Position numbers and translations under genes: made by a program. A model generated the notes under the pieces. It had not been told where the DNA came from. It made no database searches and worked only from the letters and a program-made list of their open reading frames with translations. From the sequence record PV805630.1: a DNA stretch of 64,000 nucleotides; one strand, 5' to 3'. Below, one piece after another: positions 1-46,848 of the stretch; position 1 is the stretch's first letter; each line of letters starts with the position of its first letter. The stretch comes from a phage.

Positions 1-138
1 TGGCAGGGGCTACACCCTTACACTCAACCATCCCCCCCGGTATGTTGACCATGTAGCCACTACCCTACCCCACCTTACACCTTACACTGACACACACACA
101 CTCATGTCTTTGTCTTATGTGCATGTCTTCGGCACGCA

Positions 139-157
139 CGCAAGCCTTCGGCTTGCG
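139..157. promoter_or_regulatory. Perfect hairpin CGCAAGCC-TTC-GGCTTGCG (8-bp stem, 3-nt loop) in left-end leader
   Basis: Inverted repeat read directly; no T-tract follows, so not a canonical intrinsic terminator; function unassigned. Confidence 0.3.
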
Positions 158-187
158 CGCGCGCCTGCATCTTTATAAAACATTTTT

Positions 188-204
188 GACGAACTTCGTT
201 CGTC
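188..204. promoter_or_regulatory. Perfect hairpin GACGAAC-TTC-GTTCGTC (7-bp stem, 3-nt loop)
   Basis: Inverted repeat read directly; directly abuts the 207-219 hairpin. Confidence 0.3.
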
Positions 205-206
205 TA

Positions 207-219
207 CATGCTCCGCATG
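207..219 (+). promoter_or_regulatory. Candidate virion-RNAP early promoter hairpin CATGC-TCC-GCATG
   Basis: 5-bp stem and 3-nt loop with GC-TCC-GC core; template strand reads GC-GGA-GC; about 120 nt upstream of first ORF; same core recurs at 1338 and 4936. Confidence 0.45.
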
Positions 220-338
220 TTACGGATATGTGAGATCGTAAGCTCCTTATCCCATGAGCCATTGGACATGTTTCCCTTACGATGTGCCTGTGCATCCACA
301 GGCAATCTTATTAATTATCAGAGATAGGAGCTATCATC

Positions 339-662
339 ATGACTACTACCGCTACTGTACGTATGACCGCAGGAACTCTGCTGGGTACTGTTAACTCAGC
401 TGCTACTACTGTTGCAGACACCTTCGGTGCTGCAACAAAAGCAGTTGGTATGCTTAATTCTTATGTAAGTACTATGGCAAAGAAACAAGCCATTCGTACT
501 AAATTAGAAATGCATACTTTCGAAAACAAATTAGCTGAAGAAACAGCTATGAACGAGACTCTTCGTAAGAAAAGTATCGAAGAATTCTGCAAAGATCCAG
601 AAAACGCTCGTATCTACAACGCAGAATATTCAAGAATAATCGACATCCTGTCTAAAGACTAA
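339..662 (+). CDS. Hypothetical early protein (107 aa)
   Basis: ATG preceded by TAGGAG RBS; first ORF after left-end leader. Confidence 0.6.
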   Translation: MTTTATVRMTAGTLLGTVNSAATTVADTFGAATKAVGMLNSYVSTMAKKQAIRTKLEMHTFENKLAEETAMNETLRKKSIEEFCKDPENARIYNAEYSRIIDILSKD

Positions 663-671
663 ACCAATTGG

Positions 672-690
672 GGGCTCTTCGAGCCTCCTA
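672..690. promoter_or_regulatory. Hairpin GGGGCTC-TTC-GAGCCTCC (3-nt loop)
   Basis: Inverted repeat just downstream of ORF 339-662; no T-run. Confidence 0.25.
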
Positions 691-751
691 TTAAGGGCAT
701 TAGATAGATAGATAGTCAGTTCTGTATAAAAAGTTAAAAGAGAATCCTACT

Positions 752-898
752 ATGAGCAAAGTAATAGATGCACTAATCGCAATTGTTATTGCACTTGCAC
801 TTGTTGTTATGGTTTCCGTATACATTGGAAAACCTCTGGTAAACGCTGACTATGGTAATGGTCAGAAAGTAAAATCCATCCTGCTAATGGATAAGTAA
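752..898 (+). CDS. Small hydrophobic protein (48 aa), below ORF-track length cutoff
   Basis: ATG..TAA in frame by hand translation (MSKVIDALIAIVIALALVVMVSVYIG...); single predicted TM helix; weak RBS. Confidence 0.35.
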   Translation: MSKVIDALIAIVIALALVVMVSVYIGKPLVNADYGNGQKVKSILLMDK

Positions 899-952
899 AA
901 ACTGGGCTGTTCCACAGCTTACGGGTACATTTCAACCAATTAGGAGACATCC

Positions 953-1168
953 ATGCACGCAGAAAATATCCGTATAATTGAGAATTGCTTCAGTGATAAA
1001 CCAGTAGACCTTAGCAATGCGAGAAGGTCTACAGATACAGAGTATAGAGAGTTTCTCTCCTTACTCGATGAATATCGTATGCAAGGGCATGTTGAATTAC
1101 ATGCCTATCTGCATAACTCAGGCTACTTCATGGATAAACTTGAAGCTGAGACAGGCTGTCCATTCTAA
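953..1168 (+). CDS. Hypothetical early protein (71 aa)
   Basis: ATG with TAGGAG RBS 7 nt upstream. Confidence 0.55.
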   Translation: MHAENIRIIENCFSDKPVDLSNARRSTDTEYREFLSLLDEYRMQGHVELHAYLHNSGYFMDKLEAETGCPF

Positions 1169-1337
1169 GTAAACCATTCCCTCTTAGGAGGGAATTAGCC
1201 ATCTTTAGATGGTTCAACTAGATAGATAGCTATTCGCAGAAGATGCGAAGCAGCATCTACTTTAGGATAAGTAAAGTGTCCCTGAATCTAAATCACCGTA
1301 AGAATCTCTGGATATCTTACATACCCTAAAAGACAAC

Positions 1338-1350
1338 GACGCTCCGCGTC
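1338..1350 (+). promoter_or_regulatory. Candidate virion-RNAP early promoter hairpin GACGC-TCC-GCGTC
   Basis: 5-bp stem, 3-nt loop; template strand reads ..AAGACGC-GGA-GCGTC.., close to my recollection of N4 P2 (GAAGC-GGA-GCTTC); about 110 nt upstream of ORF start 1459. Confidence 0.5.
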
Positions 1351-1458
1351 TTATGGATGATGTAAATGCATCCACTAATCATTGAATTTTTATCCTTTTG
1401 TTTGGGTGTTCTCGCCGACGAGTTCACCCGTCAATCACATAAATCTGGAGAGTACAAA

Positions 1459-1839
1459 ATGTCTATTCAAAAATTCACTTTCGGTCAGTCTAACGCTGCT
1501 ACTTCTACTGCTAAAGCGGATAAACCTAAAGCTCAGTTCTGGCTGAACATTGGTTATGTAGCTAATGAAGGTTCCGACGATGAGAAATTCATCTCGCTGC
1601 CTACTGGTATCCCGCTGGATACTCAGGAACCACTGCCTACTAACAGTAGCAATGCTGACTTCCGTGCTATGCGTTGTGCACAGAACGATTTGCTGGAACA
1701 GTTAATCGAATATGCTCAGAACCTGAAACCAGGTGAGGAGGGTATCATTAACCTGCAAGTTCAACTTCGTCGTGTGAAAGCAGAGGCTGCTGACATCCCA
1801 GCAGACGAGAATAAATATGCTCGGAAACTGACTTTCTAA
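1459..1839 (+). CDS. Hypothetical protein (126 aa from ATG 1459; ORF track gives 1366)
   Basis: ATG 1459 has GGAG RBS; ATG 1366 has none and would overlap the hairpin at 1338-1350. Confidence 0.55.
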
Positions 1840-1848
1840 TCAACAACT

Positions 1849-1878
1849 GGACTCCTTCGGGGAGTCTTTTATTTTTAA
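1849..1878 (+). terminator. Intrinsic terminator (GACTCC stem, TTCGG loop, T-run)
   Basis: GGACTCCTTCGGGGAGTC followed by TTTTATTTTT. Confidence 0.6.
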
Positions 1879-1894
1879 CTCAGCGATAAACTAA

Positions 1895-1941
1895 GTTTAA
1901 CTTTTAGGGGCTTTTCGACGAAGAGTCACTAAAAGTTAAAC
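1895..1941. repeat. 13-bp perfect inverted repeat GTTTAACTTTTAG / CTAAAAGTTAAAC with 21-nt spacer
   Basis: Read directly; lies between terminator and next gene start. Confidence 0.45.
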
Positions 1942-1981
1942 GTAAACAGAAGCAGATAACTTAGAGTAAGGAGTAATCAAG

Positions 1982-2278
1982 ATGCGTACATTATGTAACC
2001 GTTATAATCCAACCGGACTGATTAACATCATGGCCTTGTATGGTAGCAAAATGACTTATGGTGCTCGTTGGCAAGTGTCTGTAGAAGACAAGAATGGCAA
2101 ATGTCATGACCACTACTTCGTAGCTAAGCCTACTCGTAAACAAATACGTAAATTGCACAATGTGCAAAAACATTACCTATCACAAAAATGCTATGAGTGT
2201 GGTAAGAGGATAGAACTAGGAAAAGAATTTACTTTTGATGACCTCAACTATGCACACACTGACTGCCTGAAAGGATAA
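1982..2278 (+). CDS. Hypothetical Cys/His-rich protein (98 aa)
   Basis: ATG with AAGGAG RBS; C-terminal CYECG...HTDC spacing suggests a zinc ribbon. Confidence 0.55.
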   Translation: MRTLCNRYNPTGLINIMALYGSKMTYGARWQVSVEDKNGKCHDHYFVAKPTRKQIRKLHNVQKHYLSQKCYECGKRIELGKEFTFDDLNYAHTDCLKG

Positions 2279-2282
2279 GACT

Positions 2283-2501
2283 ATGTTGGACTTCATTGCG
2301 TTTGTAATACTCTGTTATGTGCTGTATCGCCTACGTGGTTACATTCTCAATGGAGCCAAGTGGGTAAGAACTAAGCTGGTACTTATCTGTAAGTTACCCG
2401 TTGTATTCGTTAAGTGTCTGTTTGCTTCCATAGTAGCTAAAGAAGTTCGTAAGCAACTCTGGGCTAAAGAAGCAGAAGAGTTTGCGAAGAGGAACCAGTG
2501 A
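2283..2501 (+). CDS. Small membrane protein (72 aa)
   Basis: ATG 5 nt after previous stop; hydrophobic N-terminus FIAFVILCYVLY. Confidence 0.5.
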   Translation: MLDFIAFVILCYVLYRLRGYILNGAKWVRTKLVLICKLPVVFVKCLFASIVAKEVRKQLWAKEAEEFAKRNQ

Positions 2502-2664
2502 TATTCACTAACATTGAGGATGCCATTGAAGAATGTATCTTCCGTAGATATCACACTGGAGTACAGAAACGACACTATGGTGTTGTGCAACTCAATGGCT
2601 ATCAAATGGCTGTAAGAATTGTACGTAACAATAAACCTTTTAACTTTATGTGGAGTACTAAACA

Positions 2665-2793
2665 TGCGTAAGTCATTAATCATGGGAACCAAAGCTGACG
2701 TACAAAAGATGAAAGAACGTCTGGCTGCTAAGAAACAGGCATCTGAACCAGTACGTAAGATTGTTACCTTCAACCATCCGTGCATCAAATAAT
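2665..2793 (+). CDS. Small basic protein (42 aa), below ORF-track cutoff
   Basis: Hand translation MRKSLIMGTKADVQKMKERLAAKKQ...; ends just before terminator. Confidence 0.3.
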
Positions 2794-2795
2794 AA

Positions 2796-2830
2796 GGAGT
2801 CCTCCAATAGGAGGCTCCTATTTTTTATTT
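2796..2830 (+). terminator. Intrinsic terminator
   Basis: GGAGTCCTCC-AATA-GGAGGCTCC hairpin followed by TATTTTTTATTTTT. Confidence 0.6.
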
Positions 2831-2869
2831 TTGAATAGTTAGACATGTATTTAAATAGGAGATAGAACC

Positions 2870-3178
2870 TTGAATGAAATAGTATGTATACTTCCTCACT
2901 TAGCTAAAGTAGCCGATAGGAATATACGGATACATTTACCCTTCCCATTAAGTAATCCATTCACTCGTAATGAAAGAACCACAGTAGAGGATATAGAGGT
3001 AGCTTATGAGGCTTACCTTCGTAATCGTCTTATTAGTGGTGACAAATTAATTACAGCAGAGATGGAAAGGATTGCTGGCTTTGTCACGGATAGTACAAAG
3101 AAACCAGTTGGTTTAATTGGTACTGAATCTGATGTTAACGTTATTCGTAAAATATTAATGGAGGCTCTAAGCCAATGA
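2870..3178 (+). CDS. Hypothetical protein (102 aa, TTG start)
   Basis: TTG start with AGGAG about 8 nt upstream; compact gene packing. Confidence 0.45.
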   Translation: MNEIVCILPHLAKVADRNIRIHLPFPLSNPFTRNERTTVEDIEVAYEAYLRNRLISGDKLITAEMERIAGFVTDSTKKPVGLIGTESDVNVIRKILMEALSQ

Positions 3179-3396
3179 TGTACATGAGCAATTATGGTAT
3201 TTGCCCAGTCTGTAAGAAAGGACGTGGAGTTGCTAATCATAAGAAGTGTAGCCGTATATTGCAGAAACAACGGAACCAGGAAGAATGGTCTAAGGTGCTG
3301 GAAAATCAGCATAAAGAAGAGAATCAACAAATGGCTGTTAGGGCATCTACTCAACGTATTCGCCGTATTAACTATATACAAGGATACCAAAAGTGA
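3175..3396 (+). CDS. Hypothetical basic protein (73 aa)
   Basis: ATG overlapping upstream stop (ATGA coupling); CPVCKKGRG motif. Confidence 0.5.
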   Translation: MMYMSNYGICPVCKKGRGVANHKKCSRILQKQRNQEEWSKVLENQHKEENQQMAVRASTQRIRRINYIQGYQK

Positions 3397-3650
3397 TTAT
3401 TACATTCCCTGTAACTAAATCATTTAACTATATGGGACAAACTATTGAAGTCCCATTATGGGTTAAATATGTAGCCTTATTATCTCGACCACAGAAGAGT
3501 AAGAATGCCTCACTAATTGGATTTAGTAGAAAGCCTAAGCTAACTGAAAACTGTATTTGGAAGTCTAGTGGTAGACAAGAGGAAATTGGTTTTTGTGACT
3601 ATGTACCTCAACCGAATACAGTATATCTAACCCTGGAGAAAGTAGAGTGA
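3393..3650 (+). CDS. Hypothetical protein (85 aa, GTG start)
   Basis: Start/stop overlap with neighbours. Confidence 0.4.
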   Translation: MIITFPVTKSFNYMGQTIEVPLWVKYVALLSRPQKSKNASLIGFSRKPKLTENCIWKSSGRQEEIGFCDYVPQPNTVYLTLEKVE

Positions 3651-3961
3651 ATAATATTGTAGTAGTACATGATAATACATTTACTGACGTCGATAAGATG
3701 ATGCGTAATATTGATTATGTATCTCAGACTAGTAAAGCATTTAATGAAAAGTTCATTATTTACTGTGAACCAGAATCACCGCTGGTTCCCGTATTAAAGG
3801 AAGCTGGTCTACCCTTCTCTACAGAGAACTTCCCAGAGGAACCAGAGTATATGATCACATTCATATATGACTTACACGATGGCTCTCCTGCTAGTGAACT
3901 GGCTATGAACCAGTGGAGTAGTAAACGTCCTGTATATGCTTTCCAGGTACTTAAACCATGA
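3647..3961 (+). CDS. Hypothetical protein (104 aa, GTG start)
   Basis: GGAG RBS; ends ...FQVLKP; 3' end shares GGTACTTAAACCATGA with next gene. Confidence 0.5.
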   Translation: MNNIVVVHDNTFTDVDKMMRNIDYVSQTSKAFNEKFIIYCEPESPLVPVLKEAGLPFSTENFPEEPEYMITFIYDLHDGSPASELAMNQWSSKRPVYAFQVLKP

Positions 3962-4200
3962 TCTATGAAGAATATTATGTATTCAAAAAAGGAAATGATT
4001 TTATAGCTATGCCCAATGATTACATGGATTGGCATACAACTCCTGTATTAAAAGAAGCATTTTCCGTACCTAACCTGGAAGAGGTTAATAAAGTAATGAA
4101 CGGAGTAATGCTAACAAGAGGTATGGCTTACAAAATAGACGCATTAGAAGGAGCTTCTGTATGCAAAGTAACTACATCCATTGAGGTACTTAAACCATGA
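3958..4200 (+). CDS. Hypothetical protein (80 aa), probable paralogue of 3647-3961
   Basis: Ends ...IEVLKP with the same 16-nt 3' end as the upstream gene. Confidence 0.5.
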   Translation: MIYEEYYVFKKGNDFIAMPNDYMDWHTTPVLKEAFSVPNLEEVNKVMNGVMLTRGMAYKIDALEGASVCKVTTSIEVLKP

Positions 4201-4577
4201 AAGCTATCTCATTAGGTGATAACACCAATACTCTAATGGGTGAAACTGCTCGCTCAATTACCATTGTTAATAAACATCATGGTAAATCCGGTGAGTACAT
4301 TGGGCGTGGCTCACCATTAGGCAATCCATTTGTAATTGGTAAACATGGAACCAGAGAGCAAGTAATTGCTAAGTATAAGGTCTGGCTACAAGAACAGATT
4401 GATAAAGGTAATCCAGTTGTACTGGATGAACTCAATCATCTTGGTAATAAAGCCATTGACGAGAAAGGGCTGGCCTTACAGTGCTTCTGTTATCCGAAAC
4501 CATGTCATGGTGAAGTTATTAAAGAGAAGCTAGTACAGGCTATGTATAACTATTTTGTAGAAAATCCAAAAGGGTAA
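4197..4577 (+). CDS. DUF4326-like protein (126 aa)
   Basis: GRGSPLGNPF ... CFCYPKPCHG signature recalled for DUF4326. Confidence 0.55.
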   Translation: MKAISLGDNTNTLMGETARSITIVNKHHGKSGEYIGRGSPLGNPFVIGKHGTREQVIAKYKVWLQEQIDKGNPVVLDELNHLGNKAIDEKGLALQCFCYPKPCHGEVIKEKLVQAMYNYFVENPKG

Positions 4578-4580
4578 CTC

Positions 4581-4931
4581 ATGAAAGAAATCTTCGTATT
4601 CACTACCAACATATTAGGTCAGCATACCAATGCTGCTGCCAAGTTAGCTTATAAGAAGCACGGTGCACGTTGGGGTATGGCCTACGGTCATTATGGTAAT
4701 AGCTTTGCCATTCCAGTAAGGGATGGCAATGGTAACCGAATTAAAGAGGGTGCTATCTATGGCTTCGTTGAAGGCTTTATTTCCTATGCATCTACTAATC
4801 CACAGTGGGATTTCAAAGTAATGGGAGATGACTTTCTGGACCCATACCTGTTCAATAATGTTACTGGCAATGTACTGTTACCAGAAGCATGGCGTAAACA
4901 CTTAGGTGATGCTTACAACTACTGGTCATAA
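4581..4931 (+). CDS. Hypothetical protein (116 aa)
   Basis: ATG with RBS; no family assignable by eye. Confidence 0.5.
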   Translation: MKEIFVFTTNILGQHTNAAAKLAYKKHGARWGMAYGHYGNSFAIPVRDGNGNRIKEGAIYGFVEGFISYASTNPQWDFKVMGDDFLDPYLFNNVTGNVLLPEAWRKHLGDAYNYWS

Positions 4932-4935
4932 GAAT

Positions 4936-4948
4936 GGTGCTCCGCACC
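4936..4948 (+). promoter_or_regulatory. Candidate virion-RNAP promoter hairpin GGTGC-TCC-GCACC upstream of RNAPII genes
   Basis: Same GC-TCC-GC core as hairpins at 207 and 1338; about 35 nt upstream of RNAPII subunit 1 start. Confidence 0.45.
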
Positions 4949-4979
4949 TTGTGGTAATTAACTAATTGGAGAATATGCG

Positions 4980-5795
4980 ATGTACTCATCTATTGAACAT
5001 CAGAAGCAACTCGAAGTACTATTCAATAAAAATCAGCTCCTGCCAAGGATGCGAAAAGAGTTCGAGGACTCCGAAGAAATTGACTTTAAGGCATTCGCTG
5101 CCTATTTGGAAATTGATTATAAGCTGCTCATTGATGCAATGGTGCAGATTGCCCTACATAAACGTGCTGACATCCAGACTATGATTGGCTCTCTCATGAG
5201 CCACTCAGATGATGCTCAGTACATCGCTGACTGTCTGTATAAGATGGCAGAGAATGACTGCTTCAACTATGACCCTACCATCGACAAATTCGGTGTTATC
5301 TATGAGATTAGTGAAGATGTACAGATGGAACTGGAAGCATTCCAGTATCCATTACCTATCGTAAGTGCTCCTAATCCTGTCAGAACTAACAGGGATACTG
5401 GTTATTACCAGACCAAAGGAAGCATTATCCTCAAGAAGAACCATCATGAGATGGATGTCTGCCTTGATCACATCAACCGTATGAATAACCAACGCCTCTG
5501 TATTAACTGGGATGTTGCTAACTATGTAAAAGACTCTCGTCCTAACATGGATAAACCCAAAGAGGGTGAAACCCGTCAGGAATATGAGAAACGTGTTAAA
5601 GCCTTTGAGAAGTACAGTCGTACTGCTAAGGAAGTAATGGAGTTAGTGACTCAAGAAGGTAATAACTTCTCACTAGCACATAAGTATGACAAGAGGGGCA
5701 GAACCTATGCCTGTGGTTACCACATTAACTATGCGGGGACCTCTTATAACAAAGCAGTCATAGAGTTCGCAGATAAAGAGCTTGTGGAGGACTAA
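4980..5795 (+). CDS. Phage RNA polymerase II small subunit (N4 gp15-like, 271 aa)
   Basis: Size and position match the N4 two-subunit RNAPII; GGAG RBS. Confidence 0.75.
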   Translation: MYSSIEHQKQLEVLFNKNQLLPRMRKEFEDSEEIDFKAFAAYLEIDYKLLIDAMVQIALHKRADIQTMIGSLMSHSDDAQYIADCLYKMAENDCFNYDPTIDKFGVIYEISEDVQMELEAFQYPLPIVSAPNPVRTNRDTGYYQTKGSIILKKNHHEMDVCLDHINRMNNQRLCINWDVANYVKDSRPNMDKPKEGETRQEYEKRVKAFEKYSRTAKEVMELVTQEGNNFSLAHKYDKRGRTYACGYHINYAGTSYNKAVIEFADKELVED

Positions 5796-35568: not shown

Positions 35569-38500
35569 TTAGTTTACTAAGTTCATCCAAGGGTTCAGGT
35601 TGTGAGCACGAAGCCCCTGACCAAAGCCCCATGAGTAATCCAGACTGCCCTTAGCAGCAATACTAAAGATGTTGTCCTGAATAGGCAGGCCAACATTACC
35701 AAACATGGTAGGAGTTGGAGCCAGCATAGCCATTGCTGCATGTACCGGGTTATTACGAATCATGGACACTGCAACTTTTGCAGAACGAATCTTAAAGTTG
35801 TAGAACCACATTAAACCAACACTCTCCATATACCCACGGAAACGGCCCGGCAGACGGTCATAGTTAATGAACTCTTCGGTTACACGTCCCAGTGCTTCTT
35901 CACGAGTCTTACCTTTACGCTGGGTCAATTCATCATAGATGATTGCTTTAGCGATAAAGTCAGAGTACTCAACCGTCTTCTGGATACCCTGGAACAGAGC
36001 AGTATCCTTAGTGATAAGTGCATAACGACCAGCAGCACGTACAGACTTAGGTAACTTATCCGCCAGCTTTTCCATGTATTCGTGAAGTTTACCTTCAGTA
36101 ATCAGGATGTCATCACGACCAATACCAGCATCTGCAATTGAAGAGAACTCACCAGCTTCTATCAGAGGCCAGATACTCATACGCTTATGGCTATCAGTAA
36201 TGGACTGAATCTCAGCCTTAAGTTTACGAATCTGGTTCGGGTTAGTAGCTGCACGTAATTCTGCTTCTGCATCTACCTGACGTAAACGAGATTTAAGGTA
36301 TTGGTTAATCTCAGCAGTCTTCCGTGGAATGCTCTTAGCAATGTTCTTAACCGGTACACCACGAGCAACCATCTGGTAAAGGTTAGCCAAAAAGTTAACA
36401 ACAGGTACGACTACTGACTTAACTACAATCAGAGTCTTAGCATCTTTAACTAAATTTTGAACCAGGTTCTCACCACCCATTAAGTACTTATAGGCACGGT
36501 TACCGGCTAAACCCAGAATAGCTTTTTTAAAAGTATTAAGCGTTTCCGGGGACCAACGAGAATTACCAGACCAAGCATCACCAATCGAAGCTGCACGATA
36601 GCCAAGTGCATCATTCAGCATGTCACGACGTACCCACAGTTCACCCTCACCAAACAGTTTTTCTGCTTTCCGTCGAGTTTCGCTGTTCATCAGCTTAAGT
36701 GCATCAGCAGTTACTGGGTCCAGTTTAGAACCAAAAAGGTTCACGTACTGGGACTTATTAGCAGCAGACATCTTAAGGTCTTCCTTGTACATGCTATACA
36801 GGTTCTCAATCAGCATATCGTTGAAACGCTGAGCCTTAGCTTCTTCCACCTGACGTCCACGCCATACACCAATTGCACGGGCAAGATGATTTTCACCTTC
36901 AATATGCTTCAGCATATTAGGGTTAATTGATTGCTCATAAGCAACCACATCACCTTTAGCATTATATATGGGCAATAGTGGTTCATTACCACGCTCACCA
37001 CGAGCTAGTGCTTTAGTGATACGGTCTACAGAAGGCTTGTCAGTAATACGACCGGCTACCATGGAACCCATCGTAAAGCCTGTGCCGAGGTCTACACCAC
37101 CAGCAGTATTACGAACGCTCTGTAGGATACCTTGTGAGAATGGAGCCTGTGCCTGTACCGGTGCAAAGTAGTAGCTACTCGATGGACCTCGGTTAGCAGA
37201 GCTACCTTGATAAGTACCCAGACGAACATAGGACTTCTCTATCAAATCGCCAAACTCGCTATCTTCAGCAACAACCAGACTAACACCCTGTTTAGTCTCA
37301 CTAGGGATATACCCTTTGTACTGGTTCAGGGTTGCACGCATATTAGATTTGGCTTTAGCCATTTCATCTTTACGCTGCCCAACCAGGTAAGAAGTAGCAA
37401 AGTCCATTCCCTCAACTTCTGTCTGAGCCAGTGAAGATAACATCTCACGGTCGGACTTGTTCATTGCTTCCAGTGCATACAGGGTAATAAGTTTATCCAG
37501 TTGAGCTACATCTACAATAGGGCGAGTAGTCTTACGTTCACCCAGCATACGAGAGATTGCAGTAGCATTACGCAGCAAGTTTTTACCGACTGTGCCATTA
37601 ATCATGTACTGAGCCAGTTGCTTAGATTTACGGTTAATCAGAGGCCAGTTACGACCAGCTTGTTTCTGCAAATCTGCTTCCAGCTTATTCACTTCACGGT
37701 CAACAATCTTCTGGTCTGACAGCAGGTCACGAATTTCAGCCAGAGACATGGTGTCACGCAGGACAGCTAAGTCAGTTTTACCCATACCAGTGTGCATTGC
37801 TTTCCACTCATCCTTAGTCAGCTTACGGCTGAACTTAGATGCGATAGTGGTAGGCAGGTGTTCACGGAACTGCTGACGGTCAGCCTGCACCTGTGCACGG
37901 ACTGCTTTAATCAAATCGTATACAGAAGCATTACTCTTAGTACGACCGGTTAAGTCATTAACCAGGTCATGGAAAGGTTGCCATACTTTACCCTGGTTCA
38001 TTGCAACCATAACGCCTTCAGCTACGTTTGCACCATTCTTCTCTGTAGCAATAGCAGCCATTAGTTGTGCAGCATGAGCAGCACCTTTGACCAATGGGTT
38101 TTTGGTATTAGCTGCAACTTCACGAGCACTTTCTAAAACACGAGTAGACAGTACATCAATAGAGTCCACCAAATACTGGTTAGCACGGTCAATAGCATTA
38201 CCACTAGGAGTAGCAACGGAATCATAGAATGACTGTGCATTTAGGCTAGTCTGCATGATTGTTTGAGCCAGTGCATCCATACCTTCCTGTACGTTAGTAG
38301 CTTTAGTATCACCTGCTACACGAGCATTCAGGCTTGCCATTGCAGCAGTACCAATGTTAGTCAGCATTGCATCAACGGTATTCCCAGATTTCTTATCTGC
38401 TTTCATAACAGGAATGTTAGCCAGTACGTTACGTACCTCTTCACTTACCATTGCCAGACCAACAAAGGTAGGCAGTATTGAAGAACGGCCCTGTGCATCA

Positions 38501-41500
38501 AACTCAATATTGTTAGCACCCATGATGGTATCGAACTTCTGCTGTGCATAGTAACGGTCAGCAGGGTTAGTACTATCTGGGTCAGTCATGAATGATTCAA
38601 CAGTCAGGTTCTTAGTAACGTGTGCATAGTATTCCTGTGCACGAGAAAGAGCAGCAGGGCTAATAGCAGCTTCAGTAGCCAGTGCAGCAACAATGTTAGT
38701 AAAGAGTCGCTGTTCCTGCATATTCATAGTGAAGCCATGAGCCTGAACATCACGGGTTACTTTAGTTGCGTGCTTTTTCGCATCAGAGAACTTACCTTCA
38801 CGGATTACTTGCTGTACTGGTTCTGAACCAATGTAGTTAGTAATCAGCTTATCAAAGGTCTGTCCTAACTCTTCCAGACGGGTATTGTCACCATATGCTT
38901 TGTTATGGAACAAGGTAGTATCTTTGGCTACAGCAGCCGTAGGAGCCTGTCCACGCATAACAACTGAAGAGTTAAACAGTAAGCCAGAGAACATATCATC
39001 TGCATTAGCAGGTGCTTTCTTGCGACCGAATACTAGACGCTTGATTGCTTCATATACAGACTGAACCATGGCTTTCAGTGCAGTGGTCTTCTTCTGCTTA
39101 CCAATCAGTTCACGGTTGGTTAAGCCCCAAGCCATGTACTCATTCAGTGCAGCAGCTTTAGCCATTGCAGGTTCAATGAAGCCGTTAGACAAATGACCAT
39201 TAATGGTATTAAGTGCATCAGCATATGCTTCACGTACTGCCGGGGATTCATCCTTAACATCCAGAGTAAGGAACTGGTTCATCAAGTCTTCAATATTCTG
39301 GACTGCTTCATTAGGAGTACCCTCATAGTGAGCCAGTACAGATTCAAAGGTAGAAGCATGTACTAATTCATGAACCAGAGTCTCTAAGGAAGGGGTAACT
39401 AAGTAGATGGTTTTATCATCAAAGTTAGTCCAACCGTATGCATTACCAGCTTCGGCAGCTTCAATATCTTCTGGTGCTGGGCGAGTAATGTTCTTCTCAA
39501 TAGCATAAGCATCCAATTGAGCAGGAGTACCGTAAACAACCTTGTAGTCTTTAGCAGCAAGGGATTTCTGTATTTCTTTCAATACTGCTTGCTGTTCTGG
39601 AGACATCTCTTTAGCCAGTTTAGTAATGGCAGTATTAGACAATAGACGTACACCAGACTTAAGTACACGGCCAACCTGCTCCATCGCTGGCACTTCTTTA
39701 ACAGGTGCTTCTTTAGTAGGCACTTCTTTCACTGGTTCTGCTTTAGAAGCACGCACTGCATCACGACGCCTGTTTAATTCAGCATCAAACAGTTCGTTCA
39801 ACTTAGCTACTTGCTGGTCTACAGTCAGACCTTCCAGAGAAATTTTACCGTTGTTCACATATGGAGCACCTACAGCAGCCATCTGGTCAACAGTGGTCTG
39901 TACCTGGTTCATTACTTTGTGGCGAATATCTACACCCAGGGCAATGTTACGCAAGTTACGCTCAATGAGGTTAACACCGGAATTCTTAATCATATCAATC
40001 TTATACTGCCTGTCTCCCTCAACACGACTGATATGAGAAAGCTGTTCAAAATCTAAAGCGGAACGAGCAATGTCATCGATTGTCTTATCCGATAACTTAT
40101 CAAAGTCTACGTTCTTCATGAACTTAGAGAAGGAGTCATACACGTTCTTAATAGGGTTGCCCTGCCAAGAAGTATATACAGCCTCATTAGCTTTACGGCT
40201 TGCATCAGTAATGTCACTGATACCAATGTTCATACCATCAAAGATTTTCAAAGTATTCTTCGGTGCACCTTTCATAGTAGAAAGGGTCTGCATCATCATG
40301 CCATCACCAGTACCGATGGTCATAAACGGAATACCTGCAACACCTGCTTGTGAAGGAGCATAGATGCTCATTGGCACACGCATACGGTCATCTAAGTTGG
40401 TAGCCAGTACTTGGTTAGCAACATCAGTATTCTCACTACCAGCAATGTAGAAAGTCTGTAAACCAGTCTCAATCATTGGAGCCAGTGGAGACAAGGATTT
40501 CTGAATTTCATTCAGTTCTTTCTGTGTTAAGAAATCACCCTTCTTCCAGGTTGGGTCTTTTTCTTTTTCAGCCAGTTTAGCCTGTACTGCTTGCTGGAAC
40601 ATATCTTGCAATACCAGAGACTGAATCTGAGTAGCCTTCTGCAAGTTCTCAGTGGATTGCATCAGCCCCTCCCCAACGGTGAACCGGATACTTTGTCTCA
40701 TTGGTTCAACGAAGAAGTGCAACATGTTCTCTTGTAAGTTCTTAAGGGCAGCACCAGATACGGTAAACTCCTGGGGATTTAACTCACCAGTCAGAGCACC
40801 ATCTACTTCTTTAATAAATAACTTACCTTTACGCTTAGCTGGAATCTTACCAGTCAGTGCTTCCATAGAAGTAAGGAAGGTATCCAGCATAGCCTGAGCA
40901 TCTGCCTCAGACGCAGCCTCCTTACCAAACATTGCCATAGCTGGGGAAATGCTAGGGTCAGCAGCACGTGCTTGTAGAACGTCACTGAGGCGTTCGTAGA
41001 TGGTGTCAGTAATTGCACTAACCATCTTCCCAGCAATACCACGTGCACCAGAACCATAGATGGTAATAGTCAGTGGGTTTTTAGCGATACCACGTTTCAG
41101 GTCCAGAGTGCCATCTTCATTCAGGTTAAAGTCTTTAATGAACAGGTCCATCAACTTCTGGAGATGGTTCATCTGGCTCATAACCGGAACATTGTTACGG
41201 TAAGTAGTACGTAACTCATTTAGATAAAATTGCAGACCATTAGTAGATGCTTCATACAGGTCAACATTATCGTCAATAGAACAATGTTCATTCATCGTTT
41301 TACCAGCACGACCAAAGAACAAACCACCCTTGGCAGTATTCTTAATCCAATTTGGAGTGAACTTACCTCCAGTCATTAATACCATTGCATTGATTGGGCC
41401 GTTGGTTACACCATCAGCTTCGACATACAGTGGGGTATTAAAGTTAGCACGGTCATCACTGTTCAGGTAACGGGCATATTCCATCAGAGCCATGAGAGCC

Positions 41501-44500
41501 ACGAAGGATTTGTTATCACCCAGGGAAGACTTCAGAATATCTACTGCATCAGTAGGTAAGTAACCAGACTTATCAAACTCGACCATCATATCAACAGCAG
41601 GTTTCAGATTACCTTCTAGAGCTTTGGTCAGATTTTCAGACATAGCTTCACGGGACATTTTGTGTACCTTGATGCCTAATGCCTGGGCCAGTCCTAGCTG
41701 GAAGTCAGAGAACGCTTGGCTGTTTTCATTACTCAAGTCAATAGTGGAGAAGGTTGGCAGAATTGCTTCACGAACCAGCTTACTGGATTGTGGATTGTTC
41801 TTACCAAGCATCTGCATACGACCTACACGGGTCATGTTGTAACCGTAATGGATAGGTGTATCCAGACCATTCTCTTGTTCTTTTAGCTGATTAATTAAAC
41901 CGAACAAGGAATCATATGCCATAGATACCGATAAGTTCTTACCTTCCAGAGATTTGGCAGTGTTTTCATTCAGCAAATCAGGATTAAGAGAACCAGCACC
42001 CATCAGTTCCAGAATGCCGTCACGCCCCAATGCTTCATAGAAGTTAACCATCGGCATGTGTACACGGAACTCCGTAGCCTGTTCAGCTTTCAGAGCAGCT
42101 TTCTGTTCTGGGGTATTCCTAACCGCAGGGTTACGTAACTGAGTTTGAGCCACGGAAGGAATGTCGTCACCGAAGTACGTTTTCTCTTCCGGGTTTACCA
42201 AAACAGCTTCTTCAATTGCTGTAAGGAAATTATTAATAGGGTCTTTATCAGCCAACTTATTAATAGTGTACAAACCAATAGTCTTATTAGAGTCCGGGTC
42301 AATCTCAGACACATCCAACATAGACTCAGTAACTGCACCCATCTCGATGAGGGAAGACAGAATCTCTGTAGCCATTGCCACTGGAATACCCTTGGTATAA
42401 CCCAGTGGTGCATTAGGGTTACGGTTTAAACCCCAGTAGGATTCAATCTTTTGAGCCAGTGAGTTAGTAGCCTCAATCAGAGTCTGGGCATTATCAAACT
42501 CAGCCAGAATACTTTCTGGTAACAGAGATGCATCTACACCAGTAATAGCAGCCACGTCTTTCATGTCTTTAATGGCAGCATTCTGTGTAGCAGTCAGTCG
42601 CCATTGCAGACCAGCAAGTACAGCAGTCTCTAACAACTGGTCATTGAACTTAAAGGTATCTCCATCTTTCTCTACGATGTTAAGTAACTTACCACCTACC
42701 CAACGGTTAGCCTCAGTACCTTCTGCAAAACGTTTACCAACATTTTTATTAGCAAGGAACTTAGCCAGTCGTTCAGACAGAGTAGCCTTCAGAGTTTCCC
42801 CAAAGTCCATCAAGTCTTGATAGCGTTCTAACACATCACCTGCGAGAACGTTATTTTCTTTTTGAGTGAACGCTTCAAAGCGAGCAGCAGAAGACAGTGC
42901 TTGCTTGATATCAGCCAAAGGAGATTCAGAACCAATGGTACGGGACTTAGGTTCTTCCGGTAGGGTAAATGCCTTCAGGAACTGGTTCGGTGTCTTCTCA
43001 TTGTTATAGACAGGGAACACTGCTTCCATTCCAGAAAGGGGTTTGCCACCCACTGTATAATCTGCTTTCAGCTGAGCCAGTGATACTTCATCCTTCTCCA
43101 CGTTGTTAGTGTTACGACCAGAGGTATCTACACCAACCAGAATCTGTGCATTATTGGCTTCAACGAAAGACTGAACAGTATTGAATTGTTCAGCAGTCAG
43201 CTTCTGATTATCAAACAGTTGCAGAGATACAAATGGTTGTTCACTACCTTTATAGAAGGTAGAGCGAATAGCACCTGTATCCAGGGACATATCACGATAC
43301 CCATCATGCCCAAATACGTCGGACAGGCTGATATGGTCGCCATTAGAACCAACCACAGTACCATCAGCAAACAGCCATGGACTCTCCCTACGATCACCAT
43401 ACTTATTAAGAGTTTCCTGTGAAATAGTATTTTCTTTCACATAGGCATCTCTTTCAGATTCAGTAGGTTGCTCGATGGTATCCTCATTAGTGGGGGTAGC
43501 ATCATCTACAACCGGGCTAGTCTTTTCAGACTTAGGTACTTTCTCTTCCTGTACAGGTGTAACTTCTGGCTGGGAGAATGTATTACGTACATAGTTCATA
43601 AAATCATTACGTGCTTGAGAAGGAGAAGACCATACTTCCCGTGTGCTACGTAAACTAAAGATTCGTCCTTCAGGAGTCATTACGTAAGGTACATTTGTTT
43701 TACCGTACTTAAATGAAGTGAGTACATCTGACTTACCAGTAACAGTGCTTTCCCCTGGAATGACAATAGTCTTACCACCAGTAGAAGGAACAGCACGAAC
43801 ACCCTCAATATCCTTACCAAGAGAAATATACTCTTTACCGTTGTAATCAAAGTACTGACCTATCTGCATATAGGTAGCTTGTTGCTTACCAGTAAACTCA
43901 GCAGTTTTCATCTCCGGGCCGTTAGGTACAGACGTACTTTCAGACTTAGGCTTAGATACTTTCTCTGGTTCTGACTTAGACTCTACAGTGTTAGGAGCAG
44001 TTTTATTGTTTACCACTGGTTTAGCTTTAGACTGTACAGTAGTAGTGTCCTCTTGCACTGGTGCAGGGGTTTCATCAACCTGATTCACTGGTTCATTAGT
44101 CTGTTGGGACTGAGTGGCATTAAGACCACCTTGACGGAACTCTTTAACTACCTGGGCAGCTGGCTTGTTCAGACGTGAATCCAACGAGGTAACTTTCACA
44201 TGAGAAACATTAAGCTCCGGGTAAGCCGTAGCAAGTGCGTTAGCAATATCAGCTACGGTCTTAGCTTCCAGCGCTACTTGCTGGGCAAACTTAACAGACT
44301 TGGTATCATAAGGATTAACACCGAGGCCAGTACGACTACGTACCCATTCACGAGTAGGCGTGAGAGCCTGATAATGAACAGACTTATTCTTATCCGCATT
44401 CCCCGAAATCAGATGCTCATTCAACGCTCCGACCTTATTCTGCATGTGCTGGGCGAACTTCATAAAATCGCTCAGATAAGCGGAGGCCAAATCGAAGTTA

Positions 44501-46848
44501 CCAGAGTTATACGCAGAACGAATGCGTTTCGCATGTTGCAACGCAGAGTACTGTCCTTCATTAGAACGAGACTCGTCGGTTTTAATCTGTTTACTAACGA
44601 TGTCTTGACGACGTAAGCCCAGTTCTTCTGCTTTAGCATCATACTCACGTGCACCCTGTAACAGAGCAGCAGCTGATTGCAGGGCAGCACGTTGACGATT
44701 ATTCAGTGTAATCTTACCCTCACTCGCATGCTTCAGAACCATGTTCACTGAATCTGCATCCAGTACTTCTGGAGACACATCAGCAGCCATAGCAATGTTG
44801 TTTGCTTGGGCTTGGTTAGCTTCTTCAGTAGCTTTCAGCTTACCTGCTTCAGCCTGTTCCTGAATCATAGAATGGATGGCACGGAATGCACGAAGTACTT
44901 TAGGGGTATTCTGTATGTTAGCCATCAGACCGGAGAACTGGTCTACGATTGCAGCAGCAGGAGAACCCTGTTCCAGATTAGCCAGAGCACCTGGGTCACG
45001 GTTAATGAAGCTATCCATAGACATGATGTTGTCATACATCTGGATTGCAGCTTCCATTTGAACGTCAGGGTCTTCAGCAGTATTAACCAGGTCAGCCATC
45101 TTCTGAATAGCTTCTACACGGTTAGTGGAACCAGAAACAGCTTCACGGATTACTGGGTTGGCTTGTTCCAATTCTACCGGGTCAAACTTCATTGCCTGGG
45201 TTAAGTCAGCAGCATACTGAGTAGCAGCAGCCTTCTCTTCTGGAGTGATGTCCATTGCATCTACTGCTTCCTGTACGGTTGCCTGTGCTTGCTCTGCCTG
45301 AGCAACAGCTTCCTGTGCAGCAGCATTAACCGTAGCATCAGCTACAGGGGATGCTTGTTCATTACGCTTAGCAACTTCTTCACCACGTTGAACCAGGATG
45401 TTAGTAAGAGGGGAGGCAGCTTTTGCTAATGTTTTACCAACCAGAGAAGCACCAGCCAGGGTAGTACGAAGAGCAGGTCCAGCAGCAGCACCGGCAGCTT
45501 TAACAGTTGCACCAGGAGCCTGAGCAACACCAGCACTACCGAAGCCATAAAGTGCACCAAGACCTGCTTGCTCACCGACACCTTTGAGGGTATCTCGGGA
45601 TGCATCAACATTTTCCTTGATTGCACGGTTCTGGGCATACTGACCAAAGCCTGACTGAATACCTTCTTCAACTGTTTCACGTAGCATATTGGAACCAGCA
45701 CCAGCCAGTGAACCTACCTTAAGTGGGTTAAGTTCAAAGCGAGATACCAGTGGACCGGTAGCAGCAGCAACTGGAGCAGTTAAGCCAGCAGCAAGGATAC
45801 CTGTTTCAGATGCAGTCTGACGACGTGCTTCATCAGGAGATAAACCATCGGCAATATGTTGTTGGTAAACAGGAGACTTACTTGCCAGTTCTGGATGGGA
45901 CATCTTCATGATTTCAGAAGCAGTCTGTTGGTATGCACCACCAGCTTCCATAGCACCGATTGCAATAGCAGGTGCAGCAACACGACCAGTAGACAGTGCA
46001 ACCTGTGCAGGACGTGAACCTAACCCAGCAGCTAAGGTAATACCCTTAACAGCTTTATCACCACCTACCATTACTTTACCGAGTGCAGATACACCACGGA
46101 TAAGTGGACCACCGGTAAAGAGGGAACCAACGCCTTCACTCAGTCCATCTGAGGCAGCCATACCATTATCAAGTGTGTTAGTAACAGAGTCGAAAGCATC
46201 ACGACCAATGCGAGACAGGGAGGCAACCAAATCGCTCTCCCCGTTTTTGATGTCCTGTTCATAGAGTTTCTGGTTCTTTTGAGCAGAAATCTGGTTCTGA
46301 TTCTGAACAACTTTACGTGTAGCATTCAGTGCATCAGATTGTAGATTGTGTACGCCTTCATTCAACCAATCCATCCCGGAAGCAATGGTTGCCCCGGCAT
46401 TATCATTGACCAGACCTGCGCCAAGAGCAGCAATGCCCCCAAGGGTATTAGCAACACCAAGACCAACACCAGAAAGAGTATCGCCAAATGCTTCTGCGTT
46501 AGTACGCTGTTTAGATAAGTCCTGACGTACAGCATCCGCAGCATTAGCTCGACTATTAAGAATTTGTAGACCTTGCTCATTACCGTATTTATTAATGATT
46601 TCTAATGGGGAGGCTTGAGTGAAGTCTGCCTGAAGTGAACCTGGTTCGAATGCACCGATTCCAAGATTACCTACTCGTCCAGTCTGGAGAGTGTAAGCAT
46701 TCTCTGGGGTTAATTGGAAAGGGCTTTGCCCTTGTGCAGCTTGCTTCTGAGAGGTTGCAGTAGAGACATCGACTTGCTTAGCATTAGTGATGCTGTCTGC
46801 GAAACCTGCCAGACGGTCAAATGTTGACATAGCATGTTTCCTGTTCAA
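35569..46848 (-). CDS. Virion-encapsidated giant RNA polymerase (N4 vRNAP / gp50-like, 3759 aa)
   Basis: Single 11.3-kb ORF, hallmark of N4-like phages; internal T7-RNAP-like motif B RGIAKNPLTITIYGSG. Confidence 0.9.
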   Translation of the reverse strand: MNRKHAMSTFDRLAGFADSITNAKQVDVSTATSQKQAAQGQSPFQLTPENAYTLQTGRVGNLGIGAFEPGSLQADFTQASPLEIINKYGNEQGLQILNSRANAADAVRQDLSKQRTNAEAFGDTLSGVGLGVANTLGGIAALGAGLVNDNAGATIASGMDWLNEGVHNLQSDALNATRKVVQNQNQISAQKNQKLYEQDIKNGESDLVASLSRIGRDAFDSVTNTLDNGMAASDGLSEGVGSLFTGGPLIRGVSALGKVMVGGDKAVKGITLAAGLGSRPAQVALSTGRVAAPAIAIGAMEAGGAYQQTASEIMKMSHPELASKSPVYQQHIADGLSPDEARRQTASETGILAAGLTAPVAAATGPLVSRFELNPLKVGSLAGAGSNMLRETVEEGIQSGFGQYAQNRAIKENVDASRDTLKGVGEQAGLGALYGFGSAGVAQAPGATVKAAGAAAGPALRTTLAGASLVGKTLAKAASPLTNILVQRGEEVAKRNEQASPVADATVNAAAQEAVAQAEQAQATVQEAVDAMDITPEEKAAATQYAADLTQAMKFDPVELEQANPVIREAVSGSTNRVEAIQKMADLVNTAEDPDVQMEAAIQMYDNIMSMDSFINRDPGALANLEQGSPAAAIVDQFSGLMANIQNTPKVLRAFRAIHSMIQEQAEAGKLKATEEANQAQANNIAMAADVSPEVLDADSVNMVLKHASEGKITLNNRQRAALQSAAALLQGAREYDAKAEELGLRRQDIVSKQIKTDESRSNEGQYSALQHAKRIRSAYNSGNFDLASAYLSDFMKFAQHMQNKVGALNEHLISGNADKNKSVHYQALTPTREWVRSRTGLGVNPYDTKSVKFAQQVALEAKTVADIANALATAYPELNVSHVKVTSLDSRLNKPAAQVVKEFRQGGLNATQSQQTNEPVNQVDETPAPVQEDTTTVQSKAKPVVNNKTAPNTVESKSEPEKVSKPKSESTSVPNGPEMKTAEFTGKQQATYMQIGQYFDYNGKEYISLGKDIEGVRAVPSTGGKTIVIPGESTVTGKSDVLTSFKYGKTNVPYVMTPEGRIFSLRSTREVWSSPSQARNDFMNYVRNTFSQPEVTPVQEEKVPKSEKTSPVVDDATPTNEDTIEQPTESERDAYVKENTISQETLNKYGDRRESPWLFADGTVVGSNGDHISLSDVFGHDGYRDMSLDTGAIRSTFYKGSEQPFVSLQLFDNQKLTAEQFNTVQSFVEANNAQILVGVDTSGRNTNNVEKDEVSLAQLKADYTVGGKPLSGMEAVFPVYNNEKTPNQFLKAFTLPEEPKSRTIGSESPLADIKQALSSAARFEAFTQKENNVLAGDVLERYQDLMDFGETLKATLSERLAKFLANKNVGKRFAEGTEANRWVGGKLLNIVEKDGDTFKFNDQLLETAVLAGLQWRLTATQNAAIKDMKDVAAITGVDASLLPESILAEFDNAQTLIEATNSLAQKIESYWGLNRNPNAPLGYTKGIPVAMATEILSSLIEMGAVTESMLDVSEIDPDSNKTIGLYTINKLADKDPINNFLTAIEEAVLVNPEEKTYFGDDIPSVAQTQLRNPAVRNTPEQKAALKAEQATEFRVHMPMVNFYEALGRDGILELMGAGSLNPDLLNENTAKSLEGKNLSVSMAYDSLFGLINQLKEQENGLDTPIHYGYNMTRVGRMQMLGKNNPQSSKLVREAILPTFSTIDLSNENSQAFSDFQLGLAQALGIKVHKMSREAMSENLTKALEGNLKPAVDMMVEFDKSGYLPTDAVDILKSSLGDNKSFVALMALMEYARYLNSDDRANFNTPLYVEADGVTNGPINAMVLMTGGKFTPNWIKNTAKGGLFFGRAGKTMNEHCSIDDNVDLYEASTNGLQFYLNELRTTYRNNVPVMSQMNHLQKLMDLFIKDFNLNEDGTLDLKRGIAKNPLTITIYGSGARGIAGKMVSAITDTIYERLSDVLQARAADPSISPAMAMFGKEAASEADAQAMLDTFLTSMEALTGKIPAKRKGKLFIKEVDGALTGELNPQEFTVSGAALKNLQENMLHFFVEPMRQSIRFTVGEGLMQSTENLQKATQIQSLVLQDMFQQAVQAKLAEKEKDPTWKKGDFLTQKELNEIQKSLSPLAPMIETGLQTFYIAGSENTDVANQVLATNLDDRMRVPMSIYAPSQAGVAGIPFMTIGTGDGMMMQTLSTMKGAPKNTLKIFDGMNIGISDITDASRKANEAVYTSWQGNPIKNVYDSFSKFMKNVDFDKLSDKTIDDIARSALDFEQLSHISRVEGDRQYKIDMIKNSGVNLIERNLRNIALGVDIRHKVMNQVQTTVDQMAAVGAPYVNNGKISLEGLTVDQQVAKLNELFDAELNRRRDAVRASKAEPVKEVPTKEAPVKEVPAMEQVGRVLKSGVRLLSNTAITKLAKEMSPEQQAVLKEIQKSLAAKDYKVVYGTPAQLDAYAIEKNITRPAPEDIEAAEAGNAYGWTNFDDKTIYLVTPSLETLVHELVHASTFESVLAHYEGTPNEAVQNIEDLMNQFLTLDVKDESPAVREAYADALNTINGHLSNGFIEPAMAKAAALNEYMAWGLTNRELIGKQKKTTALKAMVQSVYEAIKRLVFGRKKAPANADDMFSGLLFNSSVVMRGQAPTAAVAKDTTLFHNKAYGDNTRLEELGQTFDKLITNYIGSEPVQQVIREGKFSDAKKHATKVTRDVQAHGFTMNMQEQRLFTNIVAALATEAAISPAALSRAQEYYAHVTKNLTVESFMTDPDSTNPADRYYAQQKFDTIMGANNIEFDAQGRSSILPTFVGLAMVSEEVRNVLANIPVMKADKKSGNTVDAMLTNIGTAAMASLNARVAGDTKATNVQEGMDALAQTIMQTSLNAQSFYDSVATPSGNAIDRANQYLVDSIDVLSTRVLESAREVAANTKNPLVKGAAHAAQLMAAIATEKNGANVAEGVMVAMNQGKVWQPFHDLVNDLTGRTKSNASVYDLIKAVRAQVQADRQQFREHLPTTIASKFSRKLTKDEWKAMHTGMGKTDLAVLRDTMSLAEIRDLLSDQKIVDREVNKLEADLQKQAGRNWPLINRKSKQLAQYMINGTVGKNLLRNATAISRMLGERKTTRPIVDVAQLDKLITLYALEAMNKSDREMLSSLAQTEVEGMDFATSYLVGQRKDEMAKAKSNMRATLNQYKGYIPSETKQGVSLVVAEDSEFGDLIEKSYVRLGTYQGSSANRGPSSSYYFAPVQAQAPFSQGILQSVRNTAGGVDLGTGFTMGSMVAGRITDKPSVDRITKALARGERGNEPLLPIYNAKGDVVAYEQSINPNMLKHIEGENHLARAIGVWRGRQVEEAKAQRFNDMLIENLYSMYKEDLKMSAANKSQYVNLFGSKLDPVTADALKLMNSETRRKAEKLFGEGELWVRRDMLNDALGYRAASIGDAWSGNSRWSPETLNTFKKAILGLAGNRAYKYLMGGENLVQNLVKDAKTLIVVKSVVVPVVNFLANLYQMVARGVPVKNIAKSIPRKTAEINQYLKSRLRQVDAEAELRAATNPNQIRKLKAEIQSITDSHKRMSIWPLIEAGEFSSIADAGIGRDDILITEGKLHEYMEKLADKLPKSVRAAGRYALITKDTALFQGIQKTVEYSDFIAKAIIYDELTQRKGKTREEALGRVTEEFINYDRLPGRFRGYMESVGLMWFYNFKIRSAKVAVSMIRNNPVHAAMAMLAPTPTMFGNVGLPIQDNIFSIAAKGSLDYSWGFGQGLRAHNLNPWMNLVN

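Follow-up and report, generated by a model that had tools for sequence, protein, structure and literature searches.

Candidate hairpin promoters for the virion RNA polymerase in the early region of a Gamaleyavirus, N4-like phage

Hairpin promoters of N4-like phages

Phage N4 has three early promoters, which are conserved from -17 to +1 and carry a GC-rich heptamer centred at -11 between inverted-repeat flanks; the C:G pair that closes the loop, together with the loop G and A, is needed for extrusion and stability of the hairpin (PMC4496689). The N4 virion RNA polymerase (vRNAP) recognises the purine at -11, the G at -10, the G at -8 and the C at +1 of these sites, which also have a template purine at -1, and it starts eight nucleotides (nt) past -8 (PMC4496689, the review through which we cite the N4 results of Haynes & Rothman-Denes 1985, Glucksmann 1992, Dai & Rothman-Denes 1998 and Gleghorn 2008). 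Here we analyse a 64,000-nt stretch of phage DNA (sequence record PV805630.1; 'the window' is this whole stretch), near whose left end stand three hairpins of canonical N4 type, at 207-219, 1338-1350 and 4936-4948, and a fourth, variant hairpin at 906-918. Judged by their sequence, the three canonical hairpins are very probably early promoters, orthologous to N4 P1, P2 and P3 and read by the vRNAP encoded at 35569-46848.

Mechanism and motif are textbook knowledge for N4, and the description of Klebsiella phage KP8 already transfers them to a related genus. Early promoters P1-P4 are predicted and annotated in that phage (PMC6950046; GenBank MG922974, 'early promoter' features), likewise by similarity to N4, and they resemble the sites of the window in the GCTCCGC core, in a downstream sequence of TTATGGA type and in their number, four, one of which stands ahead of the gene just before gp2; however, all four KP8 sites are canonical, whereas the extra site of the window reads GTTCCAC. 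The early hairpin promoters of Pseudomonas phage LUZ7 were mapped by ONT-cappable-seq (PMC9163698). LUZ7 is N4-like, with stems of at least 4 bp, a conserved 3-nt loop, a G start and more than three early promoters (PMC9163698); it differs in belonging to another subfamily, in having measured starts and in placing them 13-14 bp from the hairpin centre, as against 11 in the window and in N4. The template heptamer of the canonical sites, GCGGAGC, also belongs to the GCGNAGC DNA mini-hairpins of Hirao and colleagues, for which the N4 promoter has been cited as a natural example (N = G, with a melting temperature of 73 C for the isolated 7-mer; PMC13037366), although these form a class of physical chemistry and not a promoter family, and the template GTGGAAC of 906-918 falls outside it. 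Single-subunit RNA polymerases of the T7 type share a homologous fold with the N4 enzyme but differ in what they recognise, which for T7 is sequence in duplex DNA and for the N4 type a hairpin that must be extruded in single-stranded form. We found no published promoter analysis of a Gamaleyavirus in the literature, KP8, from a related genus, being the only precedent.

The first 5.4 kb of the window are 96% identical to Escherichia phage vB_EcoP_G7C (G7C; Gamaleyavirus, Enquatrovirinae, Schitoviridae), 85-93% identical to about 80 other N4-like coliphages and about 74% identical to N4 itself; by its sequence, the window covers the leftmost 64 kb of the genome of an N4-like phage of the genus Gamaleyavirus. 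Bases 1-92 align to the conserved physical left end of N4, G7C, KP8 and others, from which we conclude that the window begins at the left terminus of the genome. The GenBank record of G7C carries no annotation of the promoters described here.

Three canonical hairpins before early genes

A preliminary description of the window had reported three hairpins with TCC loops as candidate vRNAP promoters, and their sequences and coordinates proved exact. It had placed all three in intergenic leaders, the third just before the genes of the phage RNA polymerase RNAPII, and they do stand before homologues of gp1, gp2 and gp15, the same genes that follow P1, P2 and P3 in N4 (Table 1). The count of three holds for canonical sites, while a fourth, similarly built hairpin at 906-918 had been missed. 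Stems measure 6, 5, 5 and 5 bp and all loops 3 nt (206-220, 906-918, 1338-1350 and 4936-4948), the 5-bp core of hairpin 1, CATGC-TCC-GCATG, being extended by one further pair. All three canonical hairpins are intergenic and on the early-gene strand, in a region where non-coding sequence makes up about 19% of the first 5 kb.

Table 1. Coordinates of the hairpins and genes discussed here; promoter assignments and transcription starts are predicted.
Feature	Position	Strand	Description
Candidate early promoter hairpin 1, N4 P1 orthologue	206..224	+	ACATGC-TCC-GCATGT, 6-bp stem, 3-nt loop, spacer TAC; predicted start G224; would drive gp1
gp1 homologue	339..662	+	First early gene past hairpin 1; 66% identity to N4 gp1
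Variant hairpin (fourth)	906..923	+	GCTGT-TCC-ACAGC, spacer TTAC, then GG; predicted start G923; closing pair T:A, not C:G
gp1.2 open reading frame	953-1168		Starts 30 nt past the fourth hairpin
Candidate early promoter hairpin 2, N4 P2 orthologue	1338..1355	+	GACGC-TCC-GCGTC, spacer TTAT; predicted start G1355, 11 nt before the gp2 ATG at 1366
gp2 homologue (cofactor of N4 RNAPII)	1366..1839	+	Past hairpin 2; 68% identity across full N4 gp2
Candidate early promoter hairpin 3, N4 P3 orthologue	4936..4953	+	GGTGC-TCC-GCACC, spacer TTGT; predicted start G4953, 27 nt before the gp15 ATG at 4980
gp15 homologue (RNAPII small subunit)	4980..5795	+	Past hairpin 3; 65% identity to N4 gp15
gp16 homologue	6451-7668		69% identity to N4 gp16; Pfam RNA_pol PF00940 match
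Virion RNA polymerase gene	35569..46848	-	3759 amino acids; E = 0 match to solved N4 vRNAP structures; proposed reader of the hairpins

The N4 sites themselves bear out what the preliminary description had said of them, namely that there are three early promoters (as the review PMC4496689 and the N4 genome both have it) and that the core of P2 is GAAGC-GGA-GCTTC. This core lies at 557-573 of the N4 genome, before gp2, where the non-template strand reads AAGAAGC-TCC-GCTTCTT, and it is present in the oligonucleotide of an N4 vRNAP structure solved by cryo-electron microscopy (PMC13492108); the other two N4 sites are GTTGC-TTC-GCAAC before gp1 and AAGCTGC-TCC-GCAGCTT at 4546, before gp15. Read on the template strand, window and N4 promoters have in common a stem of 5-7 bp, a G-purine-A triloop, a heptamer GCGRAGC centred at -11, a G at -8, a 4-nt spacer and CC at +1/+2. 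The template heptamer is GCGGAGC at all three canonical sites, and the C:G loop-closing pair (-9C:-13G) is present in the hairpins that begin at 207, 1338 and 4936, with T:A in its place at 906-918; the template bases recognised by the N4 enzyme (-11 purine, -10G, -8G and +1C) occur at all four sites, and, a template purine at -1 and template C at +1/+2 included, the canonical sites agree exactly with the elements defined by experiment in N4. TTAC (after the 5-bp core), TTAT and TTGT, each then followed by GG, come directly after hairpins 1, 2 and 3, and a G lies exactly 8 nt past the last heptamer base at 224, 1355 and 4953, as it does at 923 for the fourth site.

Differences from N4 concern the outer stems, which diverge in sequence with compensating changes and are 5-6 bp long as against 7 bp at N4 P2 and P3, the template loop of P1 (GGA in the window, GAA in N4), the spacers (TTTT at N4 P2 and P3) and the fourth site; the window promoters, moreover, are predicted. 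Hairpin 1 aligns to P1 of N4, G7C, KP8 and five other relatives, its stem differing from the GTTGC..GCAAC of G7C, KP8 and N4 by two changes, each of which alters both sides of a pair. Hairpin 2 is identical to G7C 1228-1240, and 20 of its 22 nt, the last 20, equal the annotated KP8 early promoter P2, AAGACGCTCCGCGTCTTATGGA. Downstream of hairpin 3, the window sequence TTGTGGTAATTAA matches TTTTGGTAATTAA at N4 P3.

Short palindromes may arise in AT-poor intergenic DNA by chance and without function, and two counts would be compatible with such an origin: the window holds 116 perfect palindromic hairpins with a 5-bp stem and a 3-nt loop, and the bare heptamer is not over-represented in it. GCTCCGC occurs three times in the 64 kb when both strands are scanned, always on the + strand, so that the preliminary description was right to report no further copies; nevertheless, the frequency of the bare heptamer is at chance level (2.4-2.6 copies expected; mean of 2.37 in dinucleotide shuffles, with three or more in 44 of 100), and we have dropped heptamer enrichment as an argument. 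What is enriched is the compound feature, the heptamer with three complementary flanking base pairs (3 observed vs. 0.055 expected per window; none of 1000 simulated first-order Markov windows reached 2), and significance is claimed for this feature only. A relaxed scan of both strands of the whole window, in which sites had to have a T-Y-C loop and the heptamer's outer G..C pair but could have any Watson-Crick closing pair and up to one outer-stem mismatch, returned just four perfect sites, all on the + strand and in the first 5 kb, along with seven scattered imperfect matches, five of them without GG. In the remaining 59 kb, coding sequence does not contain the motif.

Conservation tells further against chance. 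Our comparative set consisted of the window and the early regions of 17 relatives (18 genomes), and in each of these genomes three to five such sites occur, without exception on the early-gene strand. To avoid circularity, we counted all 60 GCTCCGC heptamers regardless of their flanks: three complementary flanking base pairs surround 59 of the 60 (the chance being 1 in 64 for each), 59 of the 60 lie on the + (early-gene) strand and 58 of the 60 have GG at +1/+2. The three outer stem pairs each take three to four different Watson-Crick pair types, with 6, 23 and 20 double-sided changes among 46 distinct sites and no wobble pair in 138 cells (46 sites by three outer pairs); that these 46 sites show no unpaired cells is partly by construction, sites having been picked for paired stems, and the count of 60 heptamers is the unbiased version. 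Among relatives, the P1 stem is CAT..ATG or GTT..AAC and the P3 stem GGT..ACC, GCT..AGC or GCA..TGC, and three more, uncultivated genomes from IMG/VR follow the same pattern. A search for related loci with gp15 returned 10, most of them from known phages. Strand, intergenic placement and the downstream TTNY-GG are common to the three window hairpins, whose sites are conserved in the 17 relatives with compensated changes in the stems; taken with the compound simulation, the 60-heptamer count effectively refutes an origin by chance, to which we assign next to no probability.

A separate observation in G7C concerns the heptamer count. At 503-515, after gp1, G7C has an extra hairpin, AACGC-TCC-GCGTT, which is followed by GTTT-CG and has no GG start; it has no counterpart in the window. 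Only two of the 60 heptamers are exceptions, and this is one of them.

Arms that change freely while keeping their complementarity, around an invariant asymmetric centre and with no pairs of G:T type, point to a DNA hairpin that is recognised on one strand, and the same features bear on two other explanations. The hairpins could act in read-through transcripts, as terminators or attenuators of the preceding gene or as processing or stabilising hairpins in RNA, and it is true that hairpins follow the stop codon of an upstream gene (that at 4936, for example, follows the gp14 stop at 4931) and that a consensus scan flags 906-918, 1338-1350 and 4936-4948 as terminator-like, albeit on the - strand only. 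However, no T-run follows any hairpin on the transcribed + strand, where the spacer and GG stand instead; stems are just 5-6 bp long; terminator-like hairpins with T-runs occur elsewhere, at 1849-1867 and 2801-2814; and hairpin 1, about 200 nt from the genome end, has no upstream gene. The lack of any G:U-type intermediate in the 138 covarying cells fits DNA better than RNA pairing, and the invariant loop, -8 and +1 bases are exactly those contacted by the N4 enzyme. A role at the level of RNA is therefore very improbable. Alternatively, the perfect palindromes at promoter-proximal places might be operators in duplex DNA, whose half-sites bind a dimeric phage or host protein without extrusion. 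Against this, the outer arms vary freely with complementarity kept (CAT/GTT/GAC/GAA/GCT/GGT/GCA/GAT), which is the signature of a structure; 59 of the 60 heptamers have their asymmetric TCC centre on one and the same strand, a preference not expected of a symmetric operator, which would be blind to strand; and an operator leaves the conserved spacing to GG unexplained. We give the operator explanation, too, very little credence.

Promoters for the host polymerase were likewise considered as an account of the hairpins and ruled out, a consensus scan of the early region having found no sigma-70-like promoter near any of them. Across 1-5400 such matches are depleted about three-fold (5 found vs. 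16.7 ± 3.9 in shuffles), as expected for genes that host RNA polymerase does not read, and this fits avoidance of host initiation.

The assignment of the three hairpins to a vRNAP draws further support from the cognate enzyme. Its polymerase domain, at about residues 1264-2366, is 70% identical to the N4 mini-vRNAP over 1095 residues, and we fixed the mini-vRNAP numbering on a translated segment of N4 vRNAP, on which all 14 named residues fell on the right letters. Conserved in identical local context are K114, R119 and W129, which form the recognition element for -11, D901 and R904 of the specificity loop, K849, K850, K268 and the catalytic D559, D951, Y678, K670 and R666. As predicted from its sequence, the enzyme of the window keeps every base-contacting residue of the N4 enzyme. 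This match, the agreement with the N4 sites and the synteny together support the candidacy that the preliminary description had proposed.

Some points weigh against reading the three hairpins as vRNAP promoters. In the window enzyme, N replaces K267 of the intercalating hairpin, the sole difference among the residues compared. Nearest-neighbour DNA folding gives the hairpins modest stability (-3.8 to -6.5 kcal/mol; z -1.9 to -4.0), in a model that omits the special stability of GNA triloops, for which reason folding is not part of our main evidence; an Rfam search of 1-6000 returned nothing relevant. Finally, our search found no published 5'-end, binding or extrusion data for any Gamaleyavirus, and the promoter reading rests on homology to N4.

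By the same homology, from which we infer the steps, the initiation bases and the dependence on gyrase and SSB, the promoters would work as follows. Once the left end of the genome has entered the cell, supercoiling by host gyrase would extrude each inverted repeat as a cruciform, and host SSB would melt the non-template hairpin, with its TCC loop, and spare that of the template strand, 5'-GC-GGA-GC-3', which would be unusually stable owing to a sheared G:A loop and the C:G closing pair. On this hairpin W129 of vRNAP would stack on -11G, K114 and R119 would bond -10G and -11G, and D901 and R904 would read -9C/-10G and -8G, setting the junction of stem and single strand at -5/-4. Transcription would start with GTP, paired to the template C situated 8 nt beyond -8, and RNA 5' ends are accordingly predicted at G224, G1355 and G4953. 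The resulting transcripts would encode gp1, gp2 and the RNAPII subunits and so lead to middle transcription.

If these assignments hold, the early transcription units can be annotated with confidence, with three or four promoters and predicted starts at 224, (923), 1355 and 4953. The elements of the promoter code of N4, namely core heptamer, spacing and contact residues of the polymerase, are conserved across Enquatrovirinae while stems drift by compensatory change. The understanding of how such promoters work is unchanged by this. Mildly new are the variant with a T:A closing pair and the extra structured DNA beside P1, both of which could refine the sequence rules of hairpin extrusion.

The variant hairpin at 906-918

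A scan for any hairpin with a 5-bp stem and a 3-nt TCC loop returned the fourth site. Relative to the canonical core, both sides of one pair are changed (C:G to T:A), with no loss of stem, GGA loop, -8G or GG start. The same T:A variant is found in G7C, pSb-1 and Moo19, and the aligned site is a canonical GCTCCGC hairpin, before the same leader, in ShWW44, SP5M, KKP3715 and ST4. We regard 906-918 as a possible promoter of the same family, whose T:A closing pair would probably make it weaker or harder to extrude.

Its activity is less clear. That 906-918 is an active fourth vRNAP promoter in spite of its T:A closing pair is a tentative reading, to which we give somewhat less than an even chance, and that it is a decayed, non-functional relic, with gp1.2 expressed by read-through from hairpin 1, falls only just short of even; we judge a relic and a promoter that works, if more weakly, to be about equally likely. 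The site lacks the C:G closing pair on which extrusion and hairpin stability depend in N4, and it may be inactive; with that pair goes the D901 contact to -9C, the predicted stability is the lowest of the four (-3.8 kcal/mol), and 6 of 14 Gamaleyavirus/Moovirus genomes, counting the window, have no promoter at the aligned position. On the other hand, decay would not readily account for a closing pair that has changed on both sides (C to T, G to A) so that pairing is kept, for the preservation of loop, -8G:-14C, outer stem, 4-nt spacer and GG in four phages, one of them Moo19, with an overall identity of about 80%, or for the presence of all four bases recognised by the N4 enzyme (-11, -10, -8 and +1). 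If active, 906-918 would show that the need for a C:G closing pair in extrusion and stability, established for N4, has an exception in nature, and would imply different requirements for supercoiling or SSB and possibly a different timing or strength for gp1.2.

The gene downstream was compared with its positional counterpart in KP8, and blastp found no match between gp1.2 and the KP8 open reading frame that follows KP8 P2; this gene pair is not demonstrably homologous. In the alignment of 850-965, the genes upstream of the fourth hairpin are unrelated among relatives, and the leader and gene downstream are common to them. A homology breakpoint thus lies at or adjoining this hairpin, which suggests that promoters mark the boundaries of recombination modules in these phages.

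Leaders and neighbouring genes

Between the conserved genome end and hairpin 1, the window carries about 113 nt (93-205) that are absent from N4, G7C, KP8 and five other relatives. Folded as a single strand, this insert has very strong structure (z = -6.9). A GC-rich inverted repeat of 15-16 bp occupies 133-165, and a 7-bp hairpin, GACGAAC-TTC-GTTCGTC (188-204), stands within a base or two of the promoter hairpin. Both of these hairpins have GAA triloops and C:G closing pairs on the template strand, but neither has -8G or a GG start, for which reason both were rejected as extra promoters. The tandem of 7-bp hairpin and P1 recurs in the IMG/VR genome UViG_3300006879_000003 (1304-1337), and a related insert in phage PE007. 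The insert could affect cruciform extrusion at P1, or could terminate transcription that arrives from the right end in concatemers.

On the other side of hairpin 1, the gp1 leader is 115 nt long in the window, as against about 39 nt in relatives (window 232-320), and BLAST aligns its extra part, at 236-307, with about 83% identity to the leader that precedes a gp1-like gene in Erwinia phage MIF8, which belongs to a different genus of Schitoviridae. This part contains an 8-bp hairpin at 285-304, TGCCTGTG-CATC-CACAGGCA, followed by a T-rich tail, in which MIF8 shows a compensatory change from C:G to A:T; the hairpin may be an attenuator or stabiliser that has been exchanged horizontally.

Between the genes of both RNAPII subunits lies an open reading frame of 204 amino acids (5795-6409), where G7C and pSb-1 annotate a homing endonuclease of HNH or endonuclease VII-like type; a Pfam search with this reading frame gave no match.

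The gp2 leader, finally, is 11 nt long in the window, compared with 10 nt in N4. The predicted gp2 mRNA begins GGAUGAUGUAA-AUG (window 1355-1368), with no Shine-Dalgarno sequence in its leader, which does hold a mini-reading frame of two codons (AUG AUG UAA) that abuts the gp2 start. N4 has GGAUGAAGUAAUAUG at the equivalent place, and KP8 is without the stop of the mini-reading frame. A second in-frame gp2 AUG, with a strong GGAG upstream, lies at 1459.

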